Shown: piece by piece, positions 427 to 59,502 of the stretch | Layout: each line of letters opens with the position of its first letter | Position numbering within the stretch: position 1 is the stretch's first letter | Made by a program: the position numbers and the translations under genes | Source of the DNA: Scenedesmus sp. PABB004 | Taxonomy: Eukaryota | NCBI GenBank assembly: GCA_014905635.1 | Contig: JABVCE010000012.1 | Location: 558,001 to 622,000, forward strand | Length of the DNA: 64,000 bases | Reading direction: 5' to 3' | The notes under the pieces: generated by a model | The model's database searches: none | What the model was told of the DNA's origin: nothing | Seen by the model: the letters and a program-made list of their open reading frames with translations, nothing else

Positions 427-486
427 TCGCCGCGGCCGGGGCACGGCTCGGGCGGTCGCGGTCGCGGGCTGTTGCAGTCGCGCGCG

Positions 487-20687: not shown

Positions 20688-21723
20688 TCAGTCGGCGTCT
20701 GAGCTGAGGTCATCGGAATCGCGAGAGTCAGGGCCGCCGTCCAGCCTGCGCCCGGATCCACGCGACCACGGCCTCGTGGCCGGCGCGTGCTGCTCGCGCT
20801 CGCACTCGGCGCGACGCCACGGGCAGCCGTGCGCGCGCAGCCAGCGCAGCACCTCCAGGTGCCCCCACTCAGCCGCCACGCAGCACACCCCCGCGCCCCA
20901 CCGCGCGGGCTCGGCCTGGGCGCGCGCCCAGCGCAGCATCTCCAGGTCGCCGCGCTCTGCAGCCCAATAGCACACGTCGTCGTCCCAGGGCAGCGGCGGC
21001 GCCTGCGCGCGCGCCCAGCGCAGCACGCCCAGTGGCCCGCCCCAGGCTGCTGCCTCGCACGCGCTGCTCAGGTCCAGCCCCTCGCCGCGCGCCCACTCCA
21101 GCACGGCGATCTGGCCTGCCCGCGCCGCTTCCCAGACCACGCTGTCATGCACTGCATACACGTCGCCCATGCTGCAGCCGGCGCCGCGCAGCCAGGCCAG
21201 CCCCGCCACGTCGCCGCACGCCGCGCGCGCCCTGGCCAGCTGAAGCCGGTCGCTGCCCCCCACTGCCCGCCAAGCCTCTCGCACCGCCGCAAGCGGCAGC
21301 TCGGGGCAGCACAGCGAGACGACCGTGGCACCGCGGAAGCGCTCGCGCGCCGCCTTGCACACCAGCTTGGCGGCCCACGCCTGCAGGGCCGGCGGCAGCA
21401 AGCTCAGGGCGTGGAGCACGAGCGGCTCGGGCAGGTCGCGCCACAGGGAGCTGGCGGCGCGGGCGGCGCGGGCGGGTGCGCGGGTGCGGCGGTGAGGCAG
21501 CGCGCGGTGCTTGCTGGAGCTGGCCGTGGCTCGCTGCTGAGCGCCCGCGCGGCCAGAAGCGGCAGCCGGGGGCGCCCCCAGCAGCAGCGTCCCACCTCCC
21601 CGCCTCCTCGCCAGCGCCCGCCTTGCGCTGCGCTGCCGCCGGCGCCGCGCTCGCTGCTGCTGCGGCAGCCTGCGCGCGTGTGGTCGGCCCGGCATGCCGC
21701 TTGCCGTCTGGCGCAGCTGACAT
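20688..21723 (-). CDS. F-box-like + ankyrin-like repeat protein, cassette copy B (coding exons 21723-21596 and 21450-20688)
   Basis: ATG 21723 [20 protein letters not shown]; phase-2 GT-AG intron 21595-21451; then [32 protein letters not shown] (F-box-like) and repeats of the form VC..AA..G.L..L.WAR...PW. Acidic tail. The last helix is read in a shifted frame between two compensating indels. Confidence 0.8.
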
Positions 21724-22283
21724 GAGCCACCTGACAGCCTGCGGGCCACCAGCGACCAGCAGGCGGCAGGGCAAGCGCGCGGGCGCGGCGTGAGCGGAGC
21801 AGCAGCGGCAGCCCGCGCCCGCCCCGGCGCGGCGGTGCGGCGGCGGGCCTGCCAGCGGCGCCCGGGGCGCGCGAAACCAGCGACCCACGCGACACGCCCG
21901 CCCGCCGCGCAGCGCCGCTGCCCCCGCCGCCCGCAGCGGGCGCCGCGCAGCACGGCCCGCCCGCCGCTGCTGCCCTCCCCGCCTGCCCGCGCGCCCAGCT
22001 CGCCTGGCGCTGCGCTGGTCGGCACGGCCTGGTCGCCAGGCGCCCGCAGGTCCGCGCCCAGCCTGACCAGGGGCGCGCCGCGGGCGGGCGCGGGCGCTGG
22101 GCGGCGGCAGTGGTGCGTGCGGAAGCTGTGGGCGGCGCGGCCGGCGCTTGTGTGAGTGTGTGTGTGGCAGGGGGCTGAGGACGGCGGCTGTGGGCGGCGG
22201 GGCGGCGCGCAGGGGGGGGGGCTCCTCGGGGGCGGCGCGGCGGGCAGCCAGCCGGGCGGCGCCTGCGCCCTGGCACCGCCGCC
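20688..22283 (-). repeat. F-box/ankyrin cassette copy B (whole unit including conserved upstream region and GC-AG 5'UTR intron)
   Basis: Aligns by eye along its length with copies A and C-F. Its 5' edge lies about 90 nt after the AP-4 beta stop codon. Confidence 0.9.
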
Positions 22284-22371
22284 TGCGCACGCACGGCCGC
22301 GGCTCGCGCTCGTTGCTCGCGCGCGGCCCGGTTGCGGCGCGCGCCCCGCTCCCCGCGCGCGGCCCGGGGCC

Positions 22372-27198
<4,827 letters not shown>

Positions 27199-27240
27199 GG
27201 CGGCGGGCGCCCCCGGCCGACCCGGCGCCCGCCCTGGCGC

Positions 27241-29009
27241 GGGCGGCGCGCGGGCGGGCCGCGGCGGGCCGGCGGCGCTGCTGCTGCGCGTGCGCGTGCG
27301 CGCGCCCGGCGAGCTCGCGTCTGGGAGGGGGCGGAGTCGGGGGCTTCGTGGACGCGCCACTGTGTGCGCGATCGCAGGCAGAGCGCGGGTCGTCGACCAA
27401 AGCAGCGACGGCGGCGGTGCAAGGGCCCAGGCCGCCCGCCGCCGTGCGACGCCCCCGCCACACAGCCACACAGCCGCCGCCCTCCTCAGCAGCGCCCCTG
27501 CCACGCACAACCTCCCAGTGCACCCCCCGCCGCCTACGCGCGCGCCGTTCGAAGCGCGGCGCCCCCGCCCCCGCCCGCGGCGCGCCCCTGGCCAGGCGGG
27601 GCGCGGACCTGCGGGCGCGTGGTGACTAGATCGTGCCGCCCAGCGCAGCGCCAGGCGAGCCGGGCGCGCGGGCAGGCGGGGAGGGCGCCGGCGGGCGGGC
27701 TGCGCCGCGCAGCGCCCGCTGCAGGCGGCGGGGGCGCCGGCGGTGCGCGGCGGGCGGTCGTATGGCCTGGGCCGCTGGGCCTGTGCGCCCCGGGCGCCGC
27801 TGGCAGGCCCGCCGCCACGTCGCCGCGCCGGGGCGGGGGCGGGCGCCGCACGCGCTGCTGCTGCCTTGCTCACGCCGCCCGCGCGCTCGCCCTGCCGCCT
27901 GCTGCTCCCTGGTGGCCCGCAGGCTGTGAGGTGGCGCCATGTCTGCTGCGCCAGACGGCAAGCGGCGCGCCGGGCCGACCACGCGCGCGCGGGGCGGCTG
28001 CAGCGGGCGCGGCGGCGGCGCCAGCGGCAGCGCAGCGCAAGGCGGGCGCTGGCGAGGAGGCGGGGAGGTGGGTGCGCTCTGCTGCTGCTGCTGGGGGGTG
28101 CCCCCGGCTGCCGCTGCTGGCCAGGCGGGCGCTGAGCGGCGAGCCACAGCCAGGTCCGCCACGCGCCGCTCGCTGCCTCACCGCCGCACCCGCGCACCCG
28201 CCCGCCCCGCCCGCGCCGCCAGCTCCCTGTGGCGCGACCTGCCCGAGCCGCTCGTGCTCCACGCCCTGAGCTTGCTGCCGCCGGCCCTGCAGGCGTGGGC
28301 CGCCAAGCTGGTCTGCAAGGCGGCGCGCGAGCGCTTCGGCGGCGCCACGGTCGTCTCGCTGTGCTGCCCCGAGCTGCCGCTCGCGGCGGTGCAGGAGGGC
28401 TGGCGGGCGGTGCAGGACGACAGGCAGCAGCAGGAGCGGCTGGCAGCGGCGCGCGCTGTGTGCGGCGACGTGGCGGGGCTGGCCTGGCTGCGCGGCGCCG
28501 GCTGCTACGTGGAGCACGTGTGCTACGCAGCAGCGAAGCATGGCCAGATCGCCGTGCTGGAGTGGATGCGCGACGAGGGACTGCACCTGCAGCACGTGCG
28601 CATCCCAGCAGCCGAGGGCGGGCAGCTGGCGGTGCTGCGCTGGGCGCGCGCGCATATACCGCTGCCCTGGGGCAACGGTGTGTGCTACTTTGCCGCACTG
28701 CGCGGTGGCGTGGAGGTGCTGCGCTGGGCGCGCGCGCAGACGCCGCCCGTGCCGTGGGGCACCGGCGTGTGCTGGGCGGCGGCTTTGAACGGGCACTTGG
28801 AGGCGCTGCGCTGGCTGCGCGCCAGCGGCTGCCCCTGGCGCCGCGCTGGATGCGAGGTCGAGGCGGCCAGGCGTGGCCACGAGGCCGTGGTCGCGTGGAT
28901 TCGGGCGCAGCCTGTGTCGCCGGACGACGAATACCACAGCTCTGAGAGCGAGGGCGGGGACGGCGGCAGCTCCGACTCGGACGCCGCGAGCTCGGACGAC
29001 GACGCCTGA
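27241..29009 (+). repeat. F-box/ankyrin cassette copy C (core from ~27411; 27241-27410 shared only with copy D)
   Basis: Aligns with the other copies. GC donor CCAG|GCGAGC at ~27655, acceptor CCCGCAG at 27922, ATG 27939, intron 28068-28222. Confidence 0.9.
27939..29009 (+). CDS. F-box-like + ankyrin-like repeat protein, copy C
   Basis: [15 protein letters not shown]..; [30 protein letters not shown]; ankyrin-like repeats; acidic Ser/Asp tail. The first coding exon is 2 nt short of phase 2 (indel at the CG tract ~27985), so the frame is open only if the intron is retained or the indel is an assembly error. Confidence 0.7.
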   Translation: MSAAPDGKRRAGPTTRARGGCSGRGGGASGSAAQGGRWRGGGEVGALCCCCWGVPPAAAAGQAGAERRATARSATRRSLPHRRTRAPARPARAASSLWRDLPEPLVLHALSLLPPALQAWAAKLVCKAARERFGGATVVSLCCPELPLAAVQEGWRAVQDDRQQQERLAAARAVCGDVAGLAWLRGAGCYVEHVCYAAAKHGQIAVLEWMRDEGLHLQHVRIPAAEGGQLAVLRWARAHIPLPWGNGVCYFAALRGGVEVLRWARAQTPPVPWGTGVCWAAALNGHLEALRWLRASGCPWRRAGCEVEAARRGHEAVVAWIRAQPVSPDDEYHSSESEGGDGGSSDSDAASSDDDA

Positions 29010-29324
29010 GGCTGCGGCGGCGGCGGCGGGCCGCACGTTCCGGGGCTGAGCGCCCGTGCGGCCGCAGCTCGCACGGGCGCCGCGCGGGCTATGGAGGCGC
29101 TGCGCGGGGTGTGCGCGCGCGGTGCGCGCTGGCGGCCGCGCGAGGGAGTTGTCGCAGCAGCAACTCACACGTCAGGCAACACGCCCGTCGTCCGGCGGCA
29201 CTGACCGAGCTCCCGCTCAATGTCCGCACGACCGCGTCGCGCGCGCGGCGCAGACACATGCCGGCCGGGCCGGCCACAGCTCGCGCGTCACGTGCCCTGA
29301 CTCACACAATCATTTGCTGTCCGC

Positions 29325-30084
29325 TCATGCCATGTTGGCCTTGTAGGTCAGGTGGTCCATGGCGGCGTAACGCTGTCCCGCGACCCCGCCCGCCGGCACG
29401 GCGGCCTCGAGCTCGGCCAGCTCGTCGGCGGTGAGCGTGATCGCCGCTGCGGCCGCGTTCTCCGCCACCGCGGCCAGCCGGCGCGTGCCGGGGATGGGGA
29501 TGACGTCCGGCGCCTTGGCCAGCAGCCACGCGAGGGCCAGCTGACTGGGCATCACGCCCTTGGCGGCGGCGAGGCGCTCCAGGTTGGCCACGAGCGCCAG
29601 GTTCTGCGGTGGGGAAAGGGTCCGCGGCGGCGCCGCGCTGTGATAGCGCGCAGGCGGGTGCCGCGCGGGCGCCGCCGTGCGCGCGCCGCACGCGTGCTGC
29701 CTTGCCTTGCTGAGGTTGTCGCCCGTGAACCAGGGGCTGTGCACGCGGAAGTCGCCCGCCTCGAGGCCCGCCGTGTCCTTGAGCTTGCCCGTCAGCAGCC
29801 CGCGGCCCTGCGGCGGCGCCGCGCGGCGGCGGCACCGCGCGGCGGCGGCGGCGGCGGCGGCGGCAGTGGGTCGGCGCGGCGCGGCGCCGCGGCCGCGGGG
29901 CAGGCGCGAGCGCGGGCGCCGCGCGGCGCGCGTCCGCTCGCCAGGGGGCTGTACGCCAGCACGCCGATGCCGAGCTCGCGGCACACGGGCAGCAGGTCGT
30001 CCTGGCCGCGCCGGCGCGGCGGCGGCGGCGGCGGTGTGTGAGGTGTGTGTGTGTGAGGGGGGGGGGCGTGGTGTGACAGCAGCA

Positions 30085-30154
<70 letters not shown>

Positions 30155-31338: not shown

Positions 31339-32195
31339 CGCGGCGGCGTCGCAGCTGCCGTCGAGAGGGCGCCGCCGGGTGCGAGGCAGCCGCTGCTGGC
31401 GCGGCAGCCGCGTGATGGGACGCAGCAAGCAGAATGAGCGGCGGGGGTGCGCTGGCGCGGGCGGGCGGCGCGGGGTGGGCCGCGGCGGGCTGGCGGCTCT
31501 CAGCGCAGCTGCGCGTGCGCCCGGCGAGCCCGCGGGCGAGCTCGCGCCAGGGCGCGGGCAGGGCGGAGGGCTTCGTGGACGCGCGACTGTACGCGATCGG
31601 CAGGCAGAGCGCGGGCCGTCGACCAAAGCAGCGACGGCGGCGGTGCAAGGGTCCAGGCCGCGGCGCCCCGCCGGCCACCCCCGCGCCGTGCGACGCCCCC
31701 GCCGCCGCACACACAGCCGCCGCCCCCCTCAGCACCCCGCCACGTACAACCGCCCAGCGCAGCCCCGCCGCGCCGCCGGAACGCCCGCCGTTCGAAGCGC
31801 GGCGCCCCCGCCCCCCGCCCGCGGCGCGCCCCTGGCCAGGCGGGGCGTGGCGCAGTAGGATCCTAGTGGCTGGATCGTCCCGTCCAGCGCGGCGCCAGGC
31901 GAGCCGGGCGCGCGGGCAGGCGGGGAGGGCAGCAGCGGCGGGCCGCGCTGCGCGGCGCCCGGTGCAGGCGGCGGGGGCGCCGGCGGTGCGCGGCGGGCGG
32001 GCGTGTCGCGTGGGCTGCCGGGCCTGTGCGCCCTGAGCGCCGCTGCTGGCGGGCCCGCCGCCGCACCGCCGCGCCGGGGCGGGGGCGGGCGCCGCACGCT
32101 GCTGCTGCTGCGCTCACGCCGCCCGCGCGCTTGCCCGCTGCTGCCGGTGCCCCGCCTGCTGCCCCCTGGTGGCCCGCAGGCTGTCAGGTGGCACC

Positions 32196-33308
32196 ATGTC
32201 TGCTGCGCCGGCGGCAGCGCGCCGCGAGGCGGCGGCGCGCAGCACTGGCGACGAGGCGAGGTGGGGCGCGCTGGCGCTGCCGACGCCCCCAGCTGTCGCT
32301 GCTGGCCAGGCGGGCGCTGAGCGGCGAGCCACAGCCAGGTCCAGCACGCGCAGCGCGCTGCCTCACCGCCGCCCCCGCCCGCCCGCCGCGCCCCGCCGCG
32401 CCGCCAGCTCCCTGTGGCGGGACCTGCCCGAGCCGGAGCTCAAGATCCACGTCCTGAGCTTCCTGCCGCCGGCCCTGCAGGCGTGGGCCGCCAAGCTGGT
32501 CTGCAAGGCGGCGCGCGAGCACTTCCGCGGCGCCACGGTCGTCTCGGTGCGCTGCCCCGAGCTGCCGCTCGCGGCGATGCAGGAGGCGTGGCGGGCGGTG
32601 CAGGGTGGCTGGCAGCAGCAGCAGCGGCTGGCCAAGGCACGCGCGGCGTGCGGCGACGTGGCGGGGCTGGCCTGGCTGCACGGCGCCGGCTGCAACATGC
32701 ACCAGGTGTGCTGGAACGCAGTGCAGGCCGGCCAGCTTGCGGTGCTGGAGTGGGCGCACGGCGCGGGGCTCGACCTGTGGGATGTGTGCCCGGCAGCAGC
32801 ACAGCACGGCCAGCTCGCCGTGCTGGAGTGGGCACGCGGCGAGGGGCTGGACCTGCAGGACGTGTGCGGCGCAGCAGCCAGGGTCGGGCAGCTGGATGTG
32901 CTGCGCTGGGCGCGCGCGCAGACGCCGCCGCTGCCGTGGGACGACGGCGTGTGCCACGTGGCTGCAGCGCGCGGCGACCTGGAGATGCTGCGCTGGGCGC
33001 GCGCCCAGGCCGAGCCCGCGCCGTGGGGCAAGGAGGTGTGCTGGGCGGCGGGTGCGCGCGGGCACCTGGAGGCGCTGCGCTGGCTGCGCGCCGGCGGCTG
33101 CCCGTGGTGGCGCAGCAGCTGCGAGGAGTGGGCAGCGCACAAGGGCCACGCGGCGGTGGTCGCGTGGATCCGGGCGCAGCCCGTGTCGCCGGACGACGGC
33201 CCTGACTGGGGCGAGGATGATGACGGGGAGGGCTGGGAGGGGGAGGGCTGGGAGGGGGAGGGCTGGGAGGGGGAGGGCTGGGAGGGGGGGGGCTGGGGAG
33301 AGGGGTAG
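32196..33308 (+). CDS. F-box-like + ankyrin-like repeat protein, copy D (most intact copy; one extra repeat)
   Basis: ATG 32196; phase-2 intron 32261-32407 (147 nt); [31 protein letters not shown]; repeats VCWNAVQAG, VCPAAAQHG, VCGAAARVG, VCHVAAARG, VCWAAGARG; (GEGWE)n tail ending at TAG. Confidence 0.85.
   Translation: MSAAPAAARREAAARSTGDEARWGALALPTPPAVAAGQAGAERRATARSSTRSALPHRRPRPPAAPRRAASSLWRDLPEPELKIHVLSFLPPALQAWAAKLVCKAAREHFRGATVVSVRCPELPLAAMQEAWRAVQGGWQQQQRLAKARAACGDVAGLAWLHGAGCNMHQVCWNAVQAGQLAVLEWAHGAGLDLWDVCPAAAQHGQLAVLEWARGEGLDLQDVCGAAARVGQLDVLRWARAQTPPLPWDDGVCHVAAARGDLEMLRWARAQAEPAPWGKEVCWAAGARGHLEALRWLRAGGCPWWRSSCEEWAAHKGHAAVVAWIRAQPVSPDDGPDWGEDDDGEGWEGEGWEGEGWEGEGWEGGGWGEG
33225..33299 (+). 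repeat. 15-bp tandem repeat (GGGGAGGGCTGGGAG) x4 plus one degenerate unit, encoding GEGWE
   Basis: Directly visible; G-run rich (possible G-quadruplex). Confidence 0.9.
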
Positions 33309-33466
33309 GGCTGGAGCTCGGACGAGGAGGAGGACGAGGAGGACTGGGGTGACGCCGCCTGACTGCGGCCGGCTGCGAGCTGCGCCCGGCGCCTGGGGCG
33401 GCGGCCAGCGCCGGTGCCGCCGCGCGGCCGCAGTTGCTACCCAAGCCCCTCCCTCACGTCGCGCCG

Positions 33467-47904: not shown

Positions 47905-48255
47905 GGCGCCCCCGGAAGCTGCTCCGCGCCCTGGCCGCGGGTCACCGGTCACGGAGGGGCATAGCTGTCGGCGCGCCGGGGCGCCGGCGCGCGGGGCGGG
48001 GCGGGGGCGAGGGCCTGCGCGCGAGAGGCTGGGACGTGGGCCGTGTGAGCGCGGAGGGAGAGCACAGCGGCGTCAAAGCACAGGGGCGTGGCGCTGCGGG
48101 CCTGTGGGGGCGTCGTGGGCGAGCAGGCAGGGGGACTGTTGCCAGTCAATCGGGGCTTTGCTCGGGCCCCCTGAGCTCCTATTCGCGTCCCCGCCGCGTC
48201 TGTGAGGCGCACTGCACACCACCGCCCACCTCAGCATCAGCATCCAGCTCCCGCC

Positions 48256-49058
48256 ATGCGCGCCGCCGCCTCTCCGCCGGCCGCACGCCTGGCCGCGCCG
48301 CCGCGCCGGGGCGCCGCCGCCGCAGCGGCGCCGCCCCCGGCCCGGCGGTGGCGCGCCCAGCTCCGCCGCCTGCCGGGACCGGCGCGTGCAGCGGCTGAGG
48401 ACAGCGGCAGCAGCGGCGGCGGCAGCGGCGGCAGCGGCGGCAGCAGCAGCTGCTGCTGCAGCAGCGGCGGGAGCGGAGCCGGGCGCCGCGCGCTGCTGCT
48501 GGGCGCCGCAGCGGCGGCGGCGGCGGCCGCGGCGCCACAGCCGGCGCACGCGGGCCTGCTGGACCTGCCGGCCTGCGCCGACTTCAGGCCCGCGGGCCCG
48601 CTGCAGCTGTGCGAGGTGCGCGTCGGCACCGGCGACCCGCCCGCGGCGGGCGACCTGATCGAGGTCGACTACACCGCGCGCGCGGCGGCCACGGGCAAGG
48701 TCTACGACGGCAGCCGCGGCTTCAAGTTCACCGTCGGCAACGGCGAAGGTGAGCTGCCGGCACGGCGGCGCGCGGCGCGCGCCAGCCTCCCCCCCCCCCT
48801 CTGCCTCCCTTGAATGCACCGCGCCCCGCGCGCCGCGCCCGCGCAGTCATCCCCGGCTGGGAGCTCGGCATCCTCGGCGACGGCAGCGCCGCGCTGCCGC
48901 CCGTGCGCGCCGGCGGCACGCGCACGCTGCTCGTCCCGCCGGACCTCGCCTTTGGCGCGCGCGGCGACAACTGCCTCTTCGGTCGCGCGCAGAGCTGCCG
49001 CGTGCCGCCCGGCTCGGCCGTGGTCATCACGTTTCGGTTCGTCGGCCTCGGGTACTGA
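48256..49058 (+). CDS. Thylakoid-lumen FKBP-type peptidyl-prolyl isomerase (FKBP13/FKBP16-2-like), 2 exons
   Basis: Transit peptide, Tat signal GRRALLLG..AHA; FKBP core EVRVGTG..GDLIEVDYTAR..GKVYD..FTVGNGE|VIPGWELGI..GGTRTLLVPPDLAFGARG; N- and C-terminal Cys pairs as in redox-regulated FKBP13-type proteins. Confidence 0.88.
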
Positions 49059-49186
49059 CTGACCACGCCGAGGTGGTGATCGAGGTGGTGACTCATCGCG
49101 CTTGGGTCTGCCCTCGGCCGCGCGCGCGGCCGAGGCGCGCGGGTCGGCGCGCGCGACAACGTTGCGACTCGCCGCGCGCGCAGCCG

Positions 49187-50179
49187 TCAGCTGTCGTCCG
49201 GTGAGTCAGGCTGCGCCCGGATCCACGCGGCCACGGCCTCGTGGCCGCGCTGTGCCGCCACGACCTCACACTCGCTGCGCCACCACAAGCAGCCGTGTGC
49301 ACGCAGCCAGCGCAGCGCCTCCAGCTGCCCCGCCTCAGCCGCCCGCCTGCATACAAACTCGTCCCACAGCGCGGGCGGCGTCTGCGGGCGCAGCCAGCGC
49401 AGCATCTCCAGGTCGCCGCGCTCCGCAGCCCAGTAGCACACCCAGTCGTCCCACGGCAGCGGCGGCGTCTGCGCGCGCGCCCAGCGCAGCACACCCAGCT
49501 GCCCGCCCCTGGCTGCTCCGCAATACACGCTCCCCAGACAAAGCCCCTGGCCGCGCGCCCACTCCAGCACGGCGAGCTGGCCGTGGTATGCTGCTGTTGC
49601 CAGGCACACGTCCTCCACGTAGCAGCCGGCGCCGTGCAGCCAGGCCACGCCCACCACGTCACCGCATGCAGCGCGTGCCTTGGCCAGCCGCTGCTGCTGC
49701 TGCCAGCCACCCTGCACCGCCCGCCACGCCTCCTGCACCGCCGCGAGCGGCAGCTCGGGGCAGCGCAGCGAGACGACTGTGGCGCCGCGGAAGCGCTCGC
49801 GCGCCGCCCTGCAGACCAGCTTGGCGGCCCACGCCTGCAGGGCCGGCGGCAGGAAGCTCAGGACGTGGAGCACGAGCGGCTCGGGCAGCTCTGGCAGCGA
49901 CCTGCGGGCGGCGCGGGCGGGCGCGCGGGTGCGGCGGTGAGGCAGCGGGCGGCGCGTGCTGGACCTGGTTGTGGCTCGCTGCTCGGCGCCTGCCTGGCCA
50001 GCAGCGGCAGCCGGGGCGCCCCCAGCAGCAGCAGCAGAGCGCGCTCACCTCCCCGCCTCCTCGCCAGCGGGCGCCTTGCGCTGCGCTGCCGCTGGCGCCG
50101 CCGCGCTCGCTGCTGCTGCGGCAGCCTGTGCGCGTGTGGTCGGCCCGGCGCGCCGCTTGCCGTCTGGCGCAGCAGAAAA
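49187..50179 (-). pseudogene. F-box/ankyrin copy E; start codon replaced (ATG to TTT), otherwise open
   Basis: GCCTTTTCTGCTGCGCCAGAC versus GCCATGTCTGCTGCGCCAGAC in copies C and F; an in-frame TAG upstream blocks an earlier start. Exon 2 ([28 protein letters not shown]) is intact. Confidence 0.6.
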
Positions 50180-50727
50180 GGCGTCGGCTGTGCCTGCCAC
50201 CAGGGAACAGGGGGCGGCGCTGGCAGCACGCGAGCGCGGCGTGAGCGCGGCAGCAGCAGCGCGAGCGGTGCGCCGGTCCTGGCGCGGCGGCGGGCCTGCC
50301 AGCGGCGCCCGGGGCGCGCAGGCCCAGCTGAACTCGCGACACGCCCGCCCGCCGCGCACCGCCGGTGCCCCCGCCGCCCGCAGCGGGCGCCGCGCAGCGC
50401 TGCCGCTGCTGCTGCCCTCCCCGCCTGCCCGCGCGCCCGGCTCGCCTGAAGCTGCGTCGGGCGGCACGGTCTAGTCACCAGGCGCCCGCAGGTCCGCGCC
50501 CCGCCTGGCCAGGGGCGCGCCGTGGGCGGGGCGGGCGCGGGGCGGCGGCGGCGCGGTGCGTGCGGGCGCTGTGTGGGCGAGGCCGGCGCTTGTGCGTGTG
50601 CGTGTGGCGGGGGGCTGAGGGCGGTGGCTGTGGGCGTCGGCGGGGCGGCGCGCGCGGGAGGCTCCTCGGCGGCGGTCGCGGGCAGCCGGCCGGGCGGCGC
50701 CTGCGCCCTGGGCCCTGCACCGCCGCC
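49187..50727 (-). repeat. F-box/ankyrin cassette copy E (whole unit)
   Basis: Aligns with the other copies; 50581-50727 is identical by eye to 59210-59356 of copy F. Confidence 0.9.
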
Positions 50728-50922
50728 GCCCGCAAGCGCTGGCGGCGCGGGGCGCAGCGCGGGCCAGCGCCGCCGCCAGCGCTTGCGGCATGGTCAGCCG
50801 GTTGCCAGCGCGCGCGCCCCTCTCGCCGCCGCCGCCAGACCACCAACTCGCGGGCCGCTGCCGGTGTCGCTGCCTCGTTCGTTCAAGCACGCCGCCGCGC
50901 CGCGCCCGTCGCGCCGCCGCCG

Positions 50923-52704
50923 TCACTGCACGTCGGTCTTGCAGATCGGGCAGACCTTGTGGGCCTCGAGCCAGGGCAGCACGCAGTCCTCGTGGTACGC
51001 GTGCAGGCAGGGGAGGTGCATCAGCCGCTCGCCCTCCGCGTACGCCTGCTGGCACACCACGCAGCTGTCCGAGTCGCCGGGGCGGCGGCCGGACACGAAC
51101 GTCGAGCGCGGCAGCGCCGCGAGCACGGCGGGGTCGGTCGGGACGTCGACGTTTTGGAGGCCCACCAGGTCTTCGTAGCGCATGCCGCCGCCACCGCCGC
51201 CGCCGCCGGCGCCGCCGCCCAGCACGCCGTCCTGCAGCAGCATGGACAGCAGCGCGCCCAGGCCGTCGGGGCCGGCGCCGGGGCCGCCGCCGCCGAGCGC
51301 CGGCTCGAAGCTGGTCGTGCCAGCGGCGGGGTCGTGGTGCGCGAAGCCGCCGCCGGCGGCTTCGCCCTGGCGGCGCGCCGCCGCGCTGCGCGCGCCGCCG
51401 AGCAGCAGCATGGACAGGAGGTCGTCATCAAAGGGGTCCAGCGGGCCCCCGCCGGGCATGCCGCCCAGCGGGCCGCCGGGCGCGCCGCCGCCCAAGCCGC
51501 CGCCGCCGCCAAAGCCGCCGCCAAAGCCGCCGCCGCCGCTGGTCCAGGTCGCGGTGAAGCCGCCCGGCAGCCGCGTCACGTGGAACCCGCCGCGGCCCGC
51601 GCCTGCGCTGCCACCGCCGCTGGGCCCGGCCGCGCCGGCGCCGCCGTCGCCGCCGAGCACAAGGCGGGCGAGCAGCGCCTGCAGCGGGTCGAGGTCCGCG
51701 CCGCCGCCGCCGCCGGCGCCGCTGGGCTGGTGCTGCGCTGGGCGCGCAGCGTGCTGCTGCGCCGCTGTGGCGCTGCCCCCGCTGCCGGCGCTCGCCGTGG
51801 CGCTCGCCGAGCTGCTGGAGCTGCTGGCGAGGTACCTTCGCAGCGCGCCGACACCCGCGCTGACCAGCGCCTGCATTCCCCCTCCGCCGCCACCCGGCGC
51901 CTGCGCGCCGCCCGCGGCCGTGCCGGCGCCGCCGGGCGCCGCGGGCGCCGCGCCGCCGCTGCCGCCGGCCGCCGCCGGCGCCGCCGCCGCTGGCGCGCTC
52001 GCGCCCGCGCCGGTGCTGGCGCCCGCCTGCGCCGACGCGTGCTGCCCGTCCGCGGCCATCGCCAGCAGCGCCGCCAGCGCCGCGCCGAGCGCGCTGCCGA
52101 GGCCGCCGCCCGCCGCCGCCGCGGCCTGCGACGACGGCCGCGCGGCACCGGGGCCGGCGCTGGTGCTGCCGCCGCCGCCGCCGCCGCCAGCGGCGGCCGT
52201 CGCTGCCTGCATCGACGGCGTGCGCGTGACCCGCTGCCAGTCGTCGTCGGTCTCGCTGCCCAGCGCCGCGGCCGCGGCCGCCTCCTCCTCCGCCTGCAGC
52301 CGCAGCGCGAGCGCGTGGTCCTCGTCCTCAGTGCTCGGCGCTGCCGGGCGCGTGGCGGGCGCGGGGATGGCGGGGTAGCGCGGCGCCGGCGCCTGCTGCT
52401 GCTGCGGCGCCTGCTGCTGCTGCTGCTGCGCCTGCTGCGGCGCCTGCTGCGCCTGCGTGTGCGCCGGCGCTCGCGGCCGCGCCGCGCCGTGCTGCTGCTC
52501 CCAGCGCCGGCGCTGCGCCGCCAGGGCCTCGGCGCGCTGCGCGTCGAAGCTGCTCGGCGGCGCGCCGCCCGCTGCCCCGGCCGGCAGCGGCGGCGCGCTC
52601 GGCGTCGTCTGCGGCTCGCTGTCGCCATCGCCCGCCTGCCAGCGCGCGTCCGCCAGCGAGGCTGCCAGCGCCTCCTGCAGCTCCGGGTCGTCCCGGGAGT
52701 CCAT
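50923..52704 (-). CDS. RING-H2 E3 ubiquitin ligase with N-terminal UIM and MIU-like motif (BIG BROTHER-like C-terminus), intronless
   Basis: DDPELQEALAASLAD (UIM), EDEDHALALRLQAEEE (MIU-like), MRYEDLVGL, and CVVCQQAY..LPCLHAYHEDCVLPWL..KVCPICK (C3H2C3). Confidence 0.9.
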   Translation of the reverse strand: MDSRDDPELQEALAASLADARWQAGDGDSEPQTTPSAPPLPAGAAGGAPPSSFDAQRAEALAAQRRRWEQQHGAARPRAPAHTQAQQAPQQAQQQQQQAPQQQQAPAPRYPAIPAPATRPAAPSTEDEDHALALRLQAEEEAAAAAALGSETDDDWQRVTRTPSMQAATAAAGGGGGGGSTSAGPGAARPSSQAAAAAGGGLGSALGAALAALLAMAADGQHASAQAGASTGAGASAPAAAAPAAAGGSGGAAPAAPGGAGTAAGGAQAPGGGGGGMQALVSAGVGALRRYLASSSSSSASATASAGSGGSATAAQQHAARPAQHQPSGAGGGGGADLDPLQALLARLVLGGDGGAGAAGPSGGGSAGAGRGGFHVTRLPGGFTATWTSGGGGFGGGFGGGGGLGGGAPGGPLGGMPGGGPLDPFDDDLLSMLLLGGARSAAARRQGEAAGGGFAHHDPAAGTTSFEPALGGGGPGAGPDGLGALLSMLLQDGVLGGGAGGGGGGGGMRYEDLVGLQNVDVPTDPAVLAALPRSTFVSGRRPGDSDSCVVCQQAYAEGERLMHLPCLHAYHEDCVLPWLEAHKVCPICKTDVQ

Positions 52705-53047
52705 GCGTGCGGCTGCGCGCGCTGACTGGAGCGGCGGCGAGGTGTCCGCCGGCGCAGCGCGCAAGCGTCTGCGCGCCGTGCGTGCGCACGGGCCTTGAGA
52801 GGAGGCGGGCTGGCCGCGGGAGGCGAGCGGGAGGCGAGCGCGCCGGACCAGGGCGTGGCGGCGGCGGTGGCGCAGACGCCGGTGCGCCCCGCCCCGACGC
52901 CCGCCGCCCACGGCGCCCGGCGGCACGCTCGCCACTTGTCTCGTCTCCAGGTGTTCCCGAACTGCTCGTCCAGCCGCTCCACGCACGCCCGCCGAGCGCG
53001 CAGCAGCAGCGAGTGCTCCCGCCTCGGCAGCAGCGGCCGCTTCCGGC

Positions 53048-54959
53048 ATGCAGGCGCTGGCGCAGCGCGCGCCCGGTCGCGCGTTGCCATGCCGCACGCA
53101 CGGCCGTGCCTGGCCGCGGCGGCGCGGGCTGGGCGCGGCAGCAGCAGCGCGTGGACGGGCGGCCACAGGCGCGCCCGCCCGCTCGCCAGGGCGCCCGGCG
53201 CCGCCATCGCGGGCGCCCAGCAGCAGTAGCAGCAGCAGCGGGCGCGACGAGAGCGGCAGCGCGGCCCCATGCGCGCCGGCGGCGGCGCAGCGCTGGGCGG
53301 CGGCGTCGTCGCTGCTGCTCGGCGGCGCGGGCAGCGGTGGCGCGCTGCTGGGCGTCGCCGCCGCCGCCGGCGCGGGCGCGCTGGGCTCGGGCTTCCAGCT
53401 GGAGGGCCCCGCGAGCGTGGCGCAGGCGCTGGGCGTGCTCGCGGCCATCATCGCCGTGCACGAGGCGGGGCACTTCACCGCCGCGCGGGCGCAGGGCATC
53501 CACGTCACCCAGTTTGCCATCGGCTTCGGCCCGCCGCTGTTCAGCTTCAAGGCGCGCCCCGCGCGCGCGCGCGCCGCTGCCGCCGCCGCTGCCGCAGCAG
53601 CGCTGGCGTCCCGCGCCGCCCGCGACGCCCGGCGCCGCGCCCCGCCGCTGCGCCGCGCAGCGCGGCGAGGTGGAGTACTCGCTGCGCGCCATCCCGCTGG
53701 GCGGCTACGTGGCCTTCCCCGACGACGACCCCCAGAACAGCAGCTACGCGCCCGACGGTGCGCCGCCGGCGGCGGCAGCGGCGGCAGCAGCAGCTGCGCC
53801 GGCGTGAGCGCGCCTCGGCGCGCGGCCCGCGCCGCCGCCGACGCCGCCGCCGCCGCCGCCGCAGACCCGGACCTGCTGCAGAATCGCAGCGTGCCGGAGC
53901 GCGCGCTCGTGATCAGCGCGGGCGTCATCGCCAACGTCGTCTTTGCGCTCGCCGTGCTCTTCGCGCAGGTGCCTGCCGCACGGGCGCGCGCGCGCCGGCG
54001 CGCCGGCTGGCCTCAGCAGGCCGCCAACCCGCAGCCAGCGCGGGCGTGAGCGCCGACGCCGCCCGCCCGCCCGCCGCGCGCGCGCGCAGGTCAACGTCGT
54101 GGGCAAAGCGCAGACGTCGTACCTGCCGGGCGTGCTCGTGCCGGAGGTCACCCCGGGCGGCGTCGCCGCGGCGGCGGGCTTCCAGCCGGGCGACGTCATC
54201 CTGCGCGTCGGCGACTTTGAGGTCCCCGCCAACCCCGGCCAGGTGCGGGCGAGGCCGAGGGCGGGGCGGGCGGCGGGCGGCGGGCGGCGCGCGGGCGGCA
54301 GGGCGGCAGTCGACCGAGGGCGGCGGCGCGGCGGCGCGGCGGCCGGCGCGCCGACGCGGCCCCGCCCCGCCGCCGCGTGCGCGCAGGTGCCGGACGTCGT
54401 CGCGGCGATCAAGGCCCACCCGGGCGAGGCGCTGCCGTTCCGCGTGCAGCGCGGCGAGGGCGTGCTGGACCTCTCGGCCACGCCCGCGGCGGGGCGCGAC
54501 GGGCGCGGCGCGATCGGGGTGTCGCTCTTCTCCCACACGTTCATCAAGCACACGCTGCCGGCCTCGCTGCCCGACGCCGCGGGCATGGCGGGCGCCGAGT
54601 TTGCGCGCCTCGGGAGCACCGTGCTCGGCGGCCTCGCGTCGATCGTGACCAACTTTGGCGCCGCGTCGGCGCAGCTGTCGGGCCCCGTCGCGATCGTCGC
54701 GGCGGGGAGCGAGATCGCGCGCGCCGACGCCGCGGGGCTGTACCAGTTTGCGGCGATCGTCAACATCAACCTCGCGGTCGTCAACACGCTGCCGCTGCCC
54801 GCGCTCGACGGCGGGTACCTGCTGCTGCTCGGCCTGGAGGCCGCGCGCGGGCGCAAGCTGCCGGCGGGGCTCGAGCAGGGCTTCATGGCCAGCGGCCTGC
54901 TGCTCATGCTCGCGCTCGGCGTCGGCCTTGCCGTGCGCGACACCATCAACCTGCTGTGA
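53048..54959 (+). CDS. Plastid RseP/site-2 (M50) zinc metalloprotease with PDZ domain (ARASP-like), multi-exon
   Basis: Transit peptide; IIAVHEAGHF..FAIGFGP; EYSLRAIPLGGYV; AGVIANVVFA; PDZ (PGGVAAAAGFQPGDVILRV); LSGPVAI; NINLAVVNTLPLPALDGG. Confidence 0.95.
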
Positions 54960-55306
54960 GGCGGCGCGCCGCGGCGGCGCGCGCGAGGGAGCGAGCGAGC
55001 GCAGCGCGCCCGGCGCGGCGCGCGCGGTGTACACAAGCGAGCGGCGGCGGTGCGCGAGGAGGGAGAGAGCGTGAGAGTGGTGTCGAGAGGGTAAGCTCGT
55101 GCGCGGCACAGAGCGGGACCGGCGCAGGACGGCGGAGGACGGCGGAGGTACGCGAGCAGGGCGCGGCGGCGGCGCGTGCGCGCGGGATCGACCGCCCTTC
55201 ACCTCCCGCGCGCGACGCCGCGCCCGCCAGTCCTGTCCTCAGCCCAGGCCGTAGGCGCCCCGGCCCGCAGGCAGCAGCGCGCGCAGGGCGCCGCCGCCGC
55301 AGCAGG

Positions 55307-57677
55307 ATGGCAGAGAAGGTGCCTGTGACCGTCGTGACGGGCTTCCTGGGGGCGGGGAAGACGACGCTGGTCAACCACATCCTGAAGGGTGTGCGCGCCG
55401 GGCGGGCAGCAGCGCGACAGCAGCATCTCGTGCCTCCCGCGCCGCCTGCAGCGCCCGGAGCGCCGCGGCAGCGGTCGCACAGCGCGTGCGGACGTCTGAT
55501 CGTGGCCACGGCGCAGCCGCACCGGCGAGGCGGCCCCACGCCGCGGCGCGCCGATTGTCGCCGCTGCTGCTGCGCGCCGCCGCCGCCGCCGCAGGCAACC
55601 ACGGCAAGCGCATCGCCGTGATCGAGAATGAGTTCGGTGCGGGGGTCGCGCCGGGACCGCCTGCGGGAGGGGGGGGCACCGCGCAGCGCGTGGCGGCGCG
55701 ACGTGCGGCGCGGCGCGGCGGGGGCGGCGCCTGCCCACCGCAACCGCCGCGCGCCGCGCCGCGCCGCCTCGGCAGGCGAGGTGGGCATCGACGACGCGCT
55801 GGTGGTGGAGACCAAGGAGGAGATCTACGAGATGAACAACGGCTGCGTCTGCTGCACGGGCGAGCGGCGGCAGCGCCGCCGCCGCCCTTCGCCCCGGCCC
55901 CTCCCCACACGCGCCCGCCCGCCCACGCCTGCCCGCCCCGACCCACCCGCCCGCCCGGCCCCTCCCTCGCCATCGCCACCACGCGCCCGCCCGCCCGCCC
56001 GGGCCGCCGCCGCCGCAGTGCGCGGCGACCTCATCCGCATTCTGGCCAAGCTCCTCCGCCGCAAGGCCAAGTTTGACGCCATCATGATCGAAACCACTGG
56101 CCTCGCAAACCCAGCGCCCGTCATTCAGGCGAGTGCCACCCCGGGCGCGCCCCCACGCGCGCAGCCGCGGCGCGCGCGTCGCCCGCCGCCCGCCGCGCTC
56201 GCGCTCCTGCACTGCACGCCGCGCGCCGTGCGTCGCGGCCGCCGGCGGCCCATCGGTCGTCCCCTGCGCCCTCCCTCCTGCACGCCCTCGCCCGCAATCG
56301 CCAGACGTTCTTCGTTGACGACGACCTCAAGGACGCGCTGGCGCTGGACGCGGTGCTCACGCTCGTGGACGCGAAGCACGTCACGCAGCACCTCGACGAC
56401 GTCAAGCCAGACGGCGTGGTCAACGAGGCGGGTGCGCGGCGGGCGCGCGCCCGCGGGCGCACGCATTGCTGTGTGCCATCACTCGGCCCCTGGCCGCGCG
56501 CGCGCGCGGCGGCCGGGCGCGCGGCGGCGGCGGCGCCAGCGCGCGGCGGCGGCGGGCGGTCGCCCGCGCCGACGCGCCGCCCCCGCCGCGCGGTTGCGCC
56601 TCCGCAGTGCAGCAGGTCGCGTTTGCGGACAAGCTGCTGCTGAACAAGGTGGACCTGGTCAGCCCAGAAGACAAGGCCGCCGTCGTGCGGCGCCTGCGGG
56701 TGGGTGCGCGACGCCGCGCCATGCCAGGGGCGCGGCCCGCGCCGCGCAGCGCGCCCCGCGCTGCGGCGGCCGTGGCCGCTGACGTTGACCGCCCCCGGCG
56801 GCCGCCCACGGCGCGCCTTCTCGCGCCGTCGGCGCAGGGCATCAACCGCAGCGCGGAGGTCATCGAGTGCAGCCACGCCGCGGTCGACCTCGCACGTGTG
56901 CTGGGCATTCAGAGCTTCAGCATGGACCGCATGCTGGAGATGGACCCAGACTTCCTGGTGTGTGCCCGCGGCGCGGCGCGCTGCAGGGCCTGGGCCTGGC
57001 CCCACAGGGCGGCGCCCTCCGGCGGGAAGGAGAGAAAGGCCGCCGACCGCGGCGCCGCGGGCCGCCGCAGGAGGACGACGAGCCGCACCACCACGGCCAC
57101 GGCCACGGCCACGACCATGGCCACGACTACAACCACGCAGACGGCCACGACCACGGCCACGACCACGGGCACGGCGGCCACGGCCACGGGCACGGCGACG
57201 GGCACGGTGAGCACCACCACGGGCACCACCTGGACCACAAGCACGACGACCGCGTGACGAGCGTGGGCATCGTCGCGGAGGGCAGCGTCGACATGGCCAA
57301 GCTCAACGCCTGGCTCAGCGGCCTGCTGCAGGAGCGCGGCGCCGACATCTTCAGGCGCGCGCGCGGGACCCCGCCGCCCGCCGCCTGTCCCCGCCGCCCG
57401 CCGCCGCGACGCGCCGGCCGCCGACGCGCGCTCGCCGCGCCCGTCGCCGGCGCGCAGGTCCAAGGGCGTGCTGTCGATTGAGGGGTCGCCGCACAAGCAC
57501 GTCTTCCAGGGCGTGCACATGCTGCTGCAGTTCAGCAGCAGCGCCGAGGGCGCCGGCCGGCCGTGGCGGGAGGGCGAGCCGCGCTACTGCAAGCTGGTGT
57601 TCATCGGCAAAAACCTCGACCGCGCGGAGCTCAACGCCGCGTTCGACGCGTGCCGCGTGCCGGCGGCGGCGGCGTGA
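55307..57677 (+). CDS. COG0523/CobW-family G3E GTPase metallochaperone with His-rich linker, multi-exon
   Basis: VPVTVVTGFLGAGKTT; IAVIENEFG|EVGID; NNGCVCCT|VRGDL; IETTGLANPAP; QQVAFADKLLLNKVDLV; HG-rich stretch; CobW_C (DIFR|SKGVL..FQGVH..KLVFIGKNLD). Confidence 0.96.
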
Positions 57678-57776
57678 CGCCTCGTGGAAGCGGGCGCGGC
57701 GCGCGGGGAGGGCGGCGGGCACGCAGCGGCGGCTGCGGGCGCAGCGGCGCGTTGCAACTCCCCTCGTGCGCAGCGG

Positions 57777-58773
57777 TCAGTCGTCATCCGCGGCCGGCTG
57801 CGCCCGGATCCATGCGATCATGGCCTCGTGCCCAATGCTCTGCGCCATGAATTCACAGTTGCAGCGACGCCACGGGCAGCCGTTGGCGCGCAGCCAGCGC
57901 AGCGCCTCCAGCTGCCCGTTCACAGCGGCCCGCCTGCACACCTCCTTGGCCCACGGCGCGGGCTCGGCCTGGGCGCGCGCCCAGCGCAGCATCTCCAGGT
58001 CGCCGCGCTCTGCAGCACTGTACCACACAAAGTCGCCCCACGGCAGCGGCGGCGTCTGCTCGCGCGCCCAGCGCAGCACCGCCAGCTGCCCGACCCAGGC
58101 TGCTGCCTCACACACGCTCCGAAGGTCAAGCCCCTCGCCGCGCGCCCACTCCAGCACGGCGAGCTGGCCGGCCTGCGCTGATTTCCAGCACATGTCCGCC
58201 ACAAAGCAGCCAGCGCTGTGCAGCCAGGCCAGCCCCGCCACGTCGCCGCACGCTGCACGCGCCCCTGCCAGCTGCCGCTGCTGCCAACTGCCACCCTGCA
58301 CCGCCCGCCAGGCCCCTGCACCGCCGCGAGCGGCAGCTCGGGGCAGCGCAGCGAGACGACCCTGGTGCCGCGGAAGCGCTCGCGCGCCGCCTTGCACACC
58401 AGCTTGGCGGCACACGCCTGCAGGGCCGGCGGCCAGAGGCTCAGGACGTGGAGCACGAGCGGCTCGGGCAGCTCTGGCAGCGGGCTGCGGGCGGCGCGGC
58501 CGGCGCGGGCGGGTGCGCAGGTGCGGGGGTGCGGCAGCGGGCGGCGCGTGCTGGACCTGGTTGTGGCTCGCTGCTCAGCGCCCGCCTGGCCAGCAGCGGC
58601 AGCCGGGGGCACCCCCCAGCTGCAGCAGCCGAGCGCGCCCACCTCCCCGCCTCCTCGCCAGCGCCCGCCTTGCGCTGCGCTGCCGCTGGCGCCGCCGCGC
58701 TCGCTGCTGCTGCGGCAGCCTGCGCGCGTGTGGCCGGCCCGGCGCGCCGCTTGCCGTCTGGCGCAGCAGACAT
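57777..58773 (-). pseudogene. F-box/ankyrin copy F with a 1-nt deletion frameshift (~58314)
   Basis: ATG 58773, intron 58642-58485; ...GTGCAGGGGCCTGG versus consensus GTGCAGGAGGCGTGG shifts the frame after PELPLAAVQ; the ankyrin repeats continue in another frame to TGA 57777. Could be a sequencing error. Confidence 0.6.
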
Positions 58774-59502
58774 GGCGCCACCTGACAGCCTGCGGGCCAG
58801 CAGGGAGCAGCGGGCGGGGCACCGGCAGCAGCGGGCGAGCGCGCGGGCGGCGTGAGCGCAGCAGCAGCAGCGCGCGGCGCGCCCGGGCCCGCTCCCGGCG
58901 TGGCGACGTGGCGGCGGGCCTGCCAGCGGCGCCCGGGGCGCACAGGCCCGGCGGCCCACGACACACGCCCGCCCGCCGCGCAGCGCCGCTGCCCCCGCCG
59001 CCTGCGGCGGGCGGCACGCATCGCGGCCCGCCCGCCGCTGCCCTCCCCGCCTGCCCACGCGCCCAGCTCGCCTGGCGCTGACCTGGGCGGCACGGCCTAG
59101 ACACCAGGCGCCCCCAGGTCTGCGCCCCGCCTGGCCAGGGGCGCGCCGCGGGCGGGGGCGGGCGCGGGGCGGCCGCGGCGCGGTGCGCGCGGGCGCTCGT
59201 GTGCGTCGCGGCCGGCGCTTGTGCGTGTGCGTGTGGCGGGGGGCTGAGGGCGGTGGCTGTGGGCGTCGGCGGGGCGGCGCGCGCGGGAGGCTCCTCGGCG
59301 GCGGTCGCGGGCAGCCGGCCGGGCGGCGCCTGCGCCCTGGGCCCTGCACCGCCGCCCGCGTGCCGCGCGGCTGCCGGGCGGGCGCGGCGCGGCGACGTGG
59401 CACCGCCGCCAGAGACCGGCGACGGCGCGGGAGCACGACCCCCCGCCCAGGCGCGCGGTCGGCCGGTTGCCAGCACGCGCGCGCGCCCGCTCGCCGCCCA
59501 CT
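57777..59502 (-). repeat. F-box/ankyrin cassette copy F, including the upstream segment also found at 20408-20580
   Basis: Aligns with the other copies; 59330-59502 aligns with 20408-20580. Confidence 0.88.

Follow-up and report, generated by a model that had tools for sequence, protein, structure and literature searches.

Fast-evolving F-box families are already known from nematodes and plants, and hypervariable ankyrin surfaces are known from fungal NOD-like receptors (NLRs). [quoted passage not shown] The fungal NLRs contain hypervariable ankyrin, TPR, and WD repeats in which a few positions of each conserved repeat are positively selected. In the ankyrin repeats these positions map to the concave face, on its inner helices and its hairpin/loop; the number of repeats is variable, and evidence points to exchange between repeats and between paralogues (PMC4986451). 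Here, we describe a gene family of the green alga Scenedesmus sp. PABB004 that appears to join the two. It was analyzed in a 64,000-nucleotide (nt) stretch of contig JABVCE010000012.1 (positions 558,001 to 622,000), called the window below and numbered from its first letter. Five paralogous units in this stretch, termed B to F, share one layout, in which an F-box-like motif at the N-terminus is followed by six or seven short repeats of the ankyrin type and then by an acidic tail. Our data make it reasonably probable that these units belong to a clustered family of substrate receptors of the SCF (SKP1-CUL1-RBX1) ubiquitin ligase, with a conserved F-box and repeat scaffold and a presumed binding groove diversified by selection. 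Our full-text literature searches, supplements aside, turned up neither a green-algal account of such a host F-box/ankyrin repertoire nor any host-encoded family that joins the two features.

The algal units resemble the nematode and plant F-box families in their clustered expansion and in the pairing of a conserved F-box with a diversified recognition domain. Recognition in those families, however, is carried out by FTH, FBA, Kelch, LRR, and similar domains, whereas the alga uses ankyrin repeats. The variable sites of the alga are also strictly periodic on a repeat scaffold, and their host, a unicellular chlorophyte, has a small genome. With the fungal NLRs, the algal units share a conserved repeat scaffold with few variable positions per repeat, a varying number of repeats, and exchange of segments. 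The fungal repeats are joined to NACHT or NB-ARC domains and to death or effector domains, whereas the algal partner is an F-box; Pfam scans of the copies and of the open reading frames (ORFs) of the window gave no NACHT or NB-ARC domain. The repeats of the fungal proteins are furthermore near-identical to one another (PMC4986451), whereas in the alga the scaffold signature is specific to each repeat position. Designed ankyrin repeat proteins (DARPins) likewise have a constant scaffold and diversity limited to the loop and the first helix, but they are engineered around a 33-residue repeat, whereas the algal repeats are natural, 29-30 residues long, and without TPLH. Among pathogen proteins, Legionella AnkB and the poxvirus ANK/PRANC proteins combine a SKP1-binding motif with ankyrin repeats and redirect ubiquitination. 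Chlorovirus ankyrin proteins also bind Skp1 (PMC7019647). The algal units, with a predicted F-box joined to ankyrin repeats, resemble the pathogen proteins in this combination. The pathogen proteins, however, are tools aimed at a host, whereas the algal genes are host-encoded and form a diversifying cluster of paralogues. In the poxvirus and chlorovirus proteins, moreover, the Skp1-binding motif is C-terminal, whereas the F-box of the alga is N-terminal.

Self-BLASTN of the window revealed five full units of 1.6-1.7 kb and a partial sixth, A. All ten full-length pairs among B to F align at 73-84% identity over 1.4-1.7 kb, each with E = 0. The five related copies noted in a preliminary description, which a model had made from the letters of the window, are therefore real, and their translations reproduce its peptide strings for every repeat, including the extra repeat of copy D. 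The domain that follows the F-box-like motif was examined most closely in copy C, where it spans 28422..28907 on the (+) strand and comprises six helix pairs, R0-R5, of about 29-30 residues each. Scores for Pfam Ank_4 (PF13637) exceed the cut-off of 22.7 bits in four of the five copies (B, 29.9; C, 29.2; D, 33.0; E, 29.1 bits); the fragment of copy F gave no Pfam match at E <= 1e-5. An AlphaFold2 (AF2) model of residues 93-330 of copy C, built from 28 sequences, has a predicted local distance difference test score (pLDDT) of 90.3 and a predicted template-modeling score (pTM) of 0.84, with paired helices forming six repeats across model residues 70-231. When this model was compared with the PDB using Foldseek, all 12 matches at E <= 1e-3 were ankyrin-repeat proteins or DARPin fusions, including Espin1-AR and AnkB, with FEM1B/C just below this threshold. 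Canonical ankyrin repeats have a 33-residue period and a TPLH motif. The repeats of the window depart from this form, with a unit of 29-30 residues rather than 33 and Val-Cys-x-x in place of TPLH. Such short variants are common, given that 16,406 cluster representatives match the 29-30-residue form at E <= 1e-3. The repeats of B to F are of the ankyrin type, in its short variant, as the preliminary description had held.

To locate the variation, the five copies were aligned with 21 domain segments of 13 annotated paralogues, affording a family alignment of 26 rows and 228 columns. The periodicity of the repeats defines 37 face positions: in repeats 1-4, two residues on each side of the fixed Ala-Ala of the first helix, together with two to four residues of the loop before that helix, and, in the last repeat, their equivalents. 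As many as 27 of the 30 highest-entropy columns fall within these 37 positions. Mean entropy is 2.96 and 2.23 bits in the two helix classes and 2.20 bits in the loops, compared with 0.54 bits in the scaffold and 0.64 bits in the F-box and linker; almost no variation is seen in the second helix or in the turns between repeats. A constant scaffold with variable positions, as first noticed in the window, is therefore also found in the 21 further domain segments, and the variation is not evenly spread. In copy C, the hypervariable helix-face codons that flank the conserved Ala-Ala are 196, 197, 200, and 201 in repeat 1 (28524..28541), 222, 223, 226, and 227 in repeat 2 (28602..28619), 250, 251, 254, and 255 in repeat 3 (28686..28703), and 279, 280, 283, and 284 in repeat 4 (28773..28790), all on the (+) strand. 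Codon 222 has the highest entropy of the family, at 3.62 bits. In the model, the four variable positions of helix A (i, i+1, i+4, and i+5) form a single stripe.

The preliminary description had equated these sites with the positions randomized in DARPins, which holds for half of them. The two residues after Ala-Ala align to positions 11-12 of the Pfam Ank profile, which correspond to the randomized DARPin positions 13 and 14. Framework positions of DARPins, in contrast, are the counterparts of the two residues that come before Ala-Ala, so that two of the four variable helix positions of the alga lie outside the randomized set. Helical periodicity and homology to known ankyrin repeats suggest that the variable residues are exposed on the concave face, a placement that agrees with the ankyrin repeats of fungal NLRs (PMC4986451). 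The face codons also stand out in composition. Their guanine-plus-cytosine (GC) content is 67.8%, versus 77.2% elsewhere in the gene, and their third-position GC is 86% versus 92%. Codons such as TTT, AAA, AGT, and ATT, which are rare in the genome, occur at the hypervariable sites, and the residues encoded on the face are often Trp, Tyr, Phe, Arg, Glu, or His. The choice of residue at the hypervariable codons seems to override the GC pressure of the genome.

The rate of change at the face was first compared with that of putatively neutral DNA without a substitution model, using the ten pairs of copies. Positions 1 and 2 of the 16 helix-face codons in repeats 1-4 show a mean difference of 0.51 (0.32-0.63), and those of the 21 loop and last-repeat codons show a mean difference of 0.48. 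The corresponding values for neutral proxies are 0.14 in upstream DNA, 0.13 in the putative intron, and 0.16 at third positions of the scaffold; positions 1 and 2 of the scaffold differ by 0.09. Third positions of the helix-face codons differ by 0.27, versus 0.51 at positions 1 and 2 of the same codons. Non-synonymous change at the variable face exceeds the neutral proxies.

Codon likelihoods were computed under Goldman-Yang models with F3x4 frequencies over 229 codons, with gapped codons treated as missing and the tree (B,C,(D,(E,F))) taken from IQ-TREE. The one-ratio model M0 gives an omega of 0.43. When sites are assigned to fixed classes, omega is 0.245 for the F-box and linker and 0.242 for the scaffold, but rises to 3.8 for the helix face (likelihood-ratio test [LRT] versus 1, 34.1; p = 5e-9) and to 2.8 for the loops (LRT versus 1, 19.2; p = 1e-5). 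The comparison of M1a with M2a gives 2dlnL = 77.1, with 9.9% of sites in the positive class, and 11 of the 12 sites with posterior > 0.9 are face positions. Results obtained with F61 and with equal codon frequencies agree. Pairwise fits of the ankyrin part, which require no tree, afford a helix-face omega above 1 in all ten pairs (p < 0.05 in nine) and a loop omega above 1 in all ten (p < 0.05 in five), with a scaffold omega of 0.17-0.25.

The N-terminal motif lies at 28230..28334 (+) in copy C, and an equivalent segment is present in all five copies. Each of them matches PF12937 (F-box-like) at profile positions of about 1-30, with E-values from 3.3e-4 to 0.034 and scores of 14.4-20.8 bits, below the cut-off of 24.3; scores for PF00646 (F-box) are 11.2-16.3 bits, below its cut-off of 20.5. 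The F-box-like match recurs at equal profile positions in five of nine other proteins scanned. A profile of the five N-termini, searched against the PDB, yielded five matches at E < 1e-3 (3e-4 to 5e-4), all of them F-box proteins (MAX2/D3, FBXO2) and all aligned on the F-box. A protein of Tetrabaena socialis, P0109 (2,493 residues), contains four F-boxes above the cut-off (93 bits, PF00646) that are 43-46% identical to the window motif. Its module order is that of the algal units, with four F-box modules each followed by ankyrin repeats. P0109 is probably several tandem genes merged into one public model, and it suggests that both the F-box/ankyrin family and its clustering predate Scenedesmus. 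In the model of copy C, helices span residues 11-19, 23-33, and 35-40, with a pLDDT of 59-85 in the F-box part. Taken together, the PDB profile search and the homology to T. socialis make it very likely that the N-terminal motif is an F-box, as claimed from the outset, with Pfam scores remaining below threshold.

The family extends well beyond the window. In database searches with the copies, the top seven of 21 protein matches are hypothetical proteins of Scenedesmus sp. PABB004. Eight further close relatives lie on one 1,235,393-bp contig, under locus tags 003958-004028, and the exons of one public gene model, HT031_004038, are all found in the window, at copy F. The F-box/ankyrin module is shared by 13 or more other annotated models, 12 of them on the same 1.24-Mb contig. 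From their sequences, B to F are members of a clustered nuclear multigene family of a GC-rich green alga.

Our studies allow us to propose how such genes might work and evolve. Each gene would consist of a short exon 1 encoding a basic, Ala-rich stretch, an intron of about 150 nt, and an exon for the F-box, a helical linker, six or seven repeats, and the acidic tail. The F-box would dock on SKP1 of the SCF ligase, and the ankyrin groove would bind a substrate, which would then be ubiquitinated. Purifying selection keeps the F-box and the repeat scaffold. The four helix-stripe positions of each repeat and the two to four preceding loop residues outpace neutral DNA, so that paralogues differ mainly in their presumed binding surface. 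The repertoire would arise by local duplication and by point substitutions favored by selection for new or different specificities, as well as by exchange of segments among paralogues and gain or loss of whole repeats. Genes would be subject to birth-and-death turnover, of which the damaged copies in the window would be signs. The sequences show the existence of the family, its domain composition, the location of the variation, and the excess of that variation over neutral proxies; that the proteins join SCF ligases, that their variable face binds substrates, that the intron is real, and that selection drives the pattern are the steps that we infer. A bolder proposal is that the family is an innate-immunity-like, germline-encoded library of SCF receptors, with DARPin-like ankyrin faces that selection keeps diverse, that recognizes proteins of viruses or intracellular parasites and sends them to the proteasome, and thus the first such degradation-based repertoire in a chlorophyte. 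We consider this proposal doubtful; the antiviral or antiparasite role is a hypothesis.

Several observations weigh against a selected repertoire of SCF receptors, and they bear on three other explanations. The selection tests rest on five DNA sequences, and the classes of sites were prompted by the very data used to test them. Because of doubtful alignment, B and D were masked at codons 190-199, and the extra repeat of D was omitted. The exposure of the variable residues is deduced from helical periodicity and ankyrin homology. If double and triple changes are allowed to occur instantaneously, the fit is much better, 2dlnL for M1a/M2a decreases to 7.65 (p = 0.022), and the fixed-sites omega becomes 1.7 for the helix face (p = 0.043) and 1.35 for the loops (p = 0.24). 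We think that this multi-nucleotide model is over-conservative here because the multiple-hit codons of the face are close to the expectation for independent hits (double differences, 46 observed versus 46.4 expected; triple, 16 versus 11.7), and because the general excess of clustered changes, seen in non-coding DNA and scaffold codons, is only about 1.6-fold; the formal test is still marginal. Diversifying selection, which the preliminary description had proposed to examine with codon site models, is thus supported by omega values above 1 at the face in the standard models and pairwise fits, but only marginally once multi-nucleotide changes are admitted. The copies are also mosaic: the 86 informative columns support every one of the ten possible 2|3 splits, 58% of the site pairs conflict with each other, and different segments yield different trees. 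Mosaicism can inflate random-site tests; the pairwise tests are unaffected. A test similar to the pairwise homoplasy index (PHI) for spatial clustering of incompatible sites was borderline, the observed value being matched or undercut in 101 of 2000 permutations. Finally, four of the five copies have a lesion (the frame of C depends on intron retention, the ATG of E is missing, F is frameshifted, and the last repeat of B is scrambled), although these may possibly be assembly errors. Neutral birth and death with concerted evolution would account for much of this. Under that scheme the surface is unconstrained, with omega near 1, frequent gene conversion keeps the scaffold, synonymous sites, and flanks alike and so lets the surface appear faster than neutral, and there is no selection for diversity; the modest multi-nucleotide omegas, the M2a result, the mosaic copies with their discordant segment trees, the four damaged copies, and substitutions that cluster even in non-coding DNA would all fit. 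However, conversion tracts would have to repeatedly spare two-codon patches and yet homogenize nearby synonymous sites, which itself requires selection against homogenized surfaces. In addition, the difference at codon positions 1 and 2 of the face is 3.6 times that of the non-coding flanks and of the intron, helix-face third positions are far less elevated than positions 1 and 2, and the helix-face omega is above 1 in every one of the ten tree-free pairs. We therefore regard a purely neutral history as rather unlikely.

The identity of the N-terminal motif bears on a different alternative, in which the proteins are ankyrin binders that act outside SCF and the motif is merely F-box-like, serving dimerization, localization, or another adaptor. 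In all five copies the Pfam F-box and F-box-like scores, 11-21 bits, are under the gathering cut-offs of 20.5 and 24.3, the Trp conserved in many F-boxes is replaced in the window motif (alignment with T. socialis), and the N-terminus folded alone gives a low-confidence AF2 model (pLDDT 61.7) with no Foldseek match below E = 4. Such a role is nonetheless hard to reconcile with the matches at the same profile positions in five of five copies and five of nine other proteins, with a PDB profile search that returns only F-box proteins below E = 1e-3, with homology to the above-threshold F-boxes of the identically organized T. socialis protein, and with purifying selection on the motif (omega 0.245); we judge it improbable. 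Still less probable is a non-host origin of the copies as recent giant-virus insertions or mobile-element cargo, which would explain their dispersal in both orientations. Giant viruses are rich in F-box and ankyrin families, and one weak match is to a Pandoravirus ankyrin protein (E = 1.2e-7). The copies, however, share the extreme GC of the host (77% in the coding scaffold), probably hold a GT-AG intron like that of the neighboring gene, and have housekeeping genes as neighbors, and the same architecture occurs in another chlorophycean alga. Viral contigs gave 12 pattern matches in a single-protein scan, none of which was confirmed by tblastn, so the viral contig collection contains no confirmed relative; the search for terminal inverted repeats gave nothing beyond GC-rich noise, and comparison of 167 ORFs with Pfam found no transposase or other mobile-element family. 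These features together make a viral or transposon origin unlikely. A recent viral origin was dropped because the viral-contig matches were unconfirmed, and a transposon because the inverted repeats near the units amount to no more than GC-rich matches of low identity. A host family of selected SCF receptors is the explanation that we favor.

Units B to F occur in both orientations, dispersed among unrelated host genes and not as a pure tandem array, and a family hidden Markov model (HMM) run over the whole window found no copies beyond the known units. GT-AG intron sites are present at equivalent places in all five, between the short exon 1 and the F-box, and delimit 145-158 nt. In the public model of F, the donor and acceptor resemble those of the introns of the neighboring gene. 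An intron of about 150 nt is thus probably present between the short first exon and the F-box of B to F. Copy B (20688..22344, (-)) has its ATG at 21723, exon 1 at 21723-21596, a putative intron of 145 nt (GT..AG) at 21595-21451, and exon 2 at 21450-20688 including the stop codon. Copy C (27239..29009, (+)) has its ATG at 27939, an unspliced ORF of 356 residues at 27939-29009, and a putative 155-nt intron at 28068-28222. Copy D (31461..33308, (+)) has its ATG at 32196, with exon 1 at 32196-32260, a putative 147-nt intron at 32261-32407, and exon 2 at 32408-33308. In copy E (49187..50779, (-)), exon 1 at 50179-50049 and exon 2 at 49901-49187 flank a putative 147-nt intron, 50048-49902, that holds an in-frame TGA. 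Copy F (57777..59412, (-)) has its ATG at 58773, exon 1 at 58773-58643, exon 2 from 58484, and a stop codon after 57780; its 158-nt intron, 58642-58485, is spliced in the public gene model. The N-terminus of B to F, for example, at 27939-27992 in C, is a short basic stretch followed by an Ala-rich run, common to paralogues elsewhere on the contig. This segment could be a localization signal.

The integrity of the reading frames differs among the copies. Copy D is intact both spliced (321 residues) and unspliced (370 residues) and is alone in being intact under both gene models; the earlier count of five coding copies is right as to five homologous units but overstates their coding state. The spliced ORF of copy B, 296 residues, reads through, but gaps of 1 nt (20795/20794) and 2 nt (20736/20735) shift about 20 residues of its last repeat into another reading frame, and the acidic tail is then in frame again; the family HMM finds this last repeat in another frame at 20743-20805. 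Compared with the other copies, copy C has a gap of 2 nt after 27993 that shifts its exon 1, so that the F-box and ankyrin repeats are in frame only if the intron is retained; the unspliced frame of 356 residues is intact. Copy E has TTT (50179-50177) at the position of the start codon and no in-frame ATG upstream, and its spliced frame is otherwise intact (281 codons). Copy F has a 1-nt gap at 58315/58314 between the F-box frame and the ankyrin frame. In a free-ratio branch model, every terminal branch has a scaffold omega within 0.24-0.46, with no sign of heterogeneity (p = 0.96). The uniformly low values indicate that the lesions are recent, tolerated, or assembly errors. The possibility that B, C, E, and F are old pseudogenes was rejected, since the same model shows no relaxed scaffold constraint on the "damaged" copies.

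Whole repeats have been gained and lost. The extra repeat of copy D is an internal duplication of repeat 1 (about 32664-32762) whose halves are nearly identical in scaffold but differ in their variable residues. An extra repeat is also present in paralogues P0027, P0028, and P0037, and repeat 2 is absent from P0007 and from one domain of P0023. The tail of D (33240-33305) is rich in Gly, Glu, and Trp and consists of repeated Gly-Glu-Gly-Trp units.

All copies have a common start region and about 390 nt of alignable 5' flank, and homology stops near the stop codon. By segment, identity among copies is lowest in the ankyrin part (77-82%) and is 83-94% in the flank, exon 1/intron, and F-box. The longest identical stretch between E and F is a 147-nt run of non-coding DNA on the (-) strand, 50581..50727 in E and 59210..59356 in F; it lies 5' of the start codon and has exactly the length given in the preliminary description. 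Partial copy A (1..485, (-)) consists of 5' flank only, and its coding part would fall past the left end of the window. It matches the upstream flanks of B (21852-22344, 82%), E (87%), and F (84%), as well as those of C and D. Just downstream of B, a fragment at 20401..20581 (-) is 78.5% identical to the far-upstream flank of F (59323-59502). This fragment may be a remnant of a once-adjacent unit, or the duplicated segment may sometimes have taken in the tail of a neighbor.

In the public annotation, model HT031_004038 (P0008, window 57780-61408 (-)) joins an unrelated upstream gene, with exons at 61408-60884, 60736-60548, and 60443-60156, to copy F. It splices out 58360-58173 and so removes both the frameshift of F and conserved coding sequence that runs from the linker up to and including the first helix in repeat 1. 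The public models of other family members are likewise fused to neighboring genes and bear the names CM1, HET-E1, SLC4A1AP, and btgE. These fusions look like prediction artifacts of an 80% GC genome.

The genome of PABB004 has 39.8 Mb in 77 contigs, 78.5% GC, 7,092 genes, and 1.31% repeats, and is described as small, gene-poor, and repeat-poor, with the most gene-family contractions of its group (PMC12571836). The GC content of the window is about 80% overall and 74-85% across all of its 2-kb bins, and 102 ORFs of at least 300 residues are distributed over all six frames of the 64 kb. Because long frames stay open in all six frames at about 80% GC, ORF length is no evidence of coding, and homology support is needed. 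An apparent ORF of 586 residues spanning copy B was rejected as a gene, its translation being mostly open non-coding frame. Antisense to copy C is an open frame of 989 residues (26122-29088 (-)) whose sole real, exon-sized match is an adaptin N-terminal region. Pfam comparison of the 167 window ORFs of at least 250 residues places SH3, CLASP, zinc knuckle and RRM, adaptin, aldo-keto reductase, RING, M50 peptidase and PDZ, and CobW genes between units B to F. No Rfam family reached its gathering score anywhere in the window. Self-BLASTN also gave an inverted match between 3087-3341 and 48257-48526 (about 270 nt, 72.8%), which is unrelated to the F-box/ankyrin units.

That a family is kept at 20 or more copies in a small, contracted genome suggests a real benefit to the alga. 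If the variable face binds foreign proteins, the family would offer a tractable handle on how microalgae recognize viruses and parasites, which is a practical concern in pond cultivation. In that case it would also be a natural counterpart of DARPin libraries, and the surface residues that it tolerates or prefers could inform binder design. If its targets are instead endogenous, the family would still be a clean, small model for the evolution of SCF receptor specificity.

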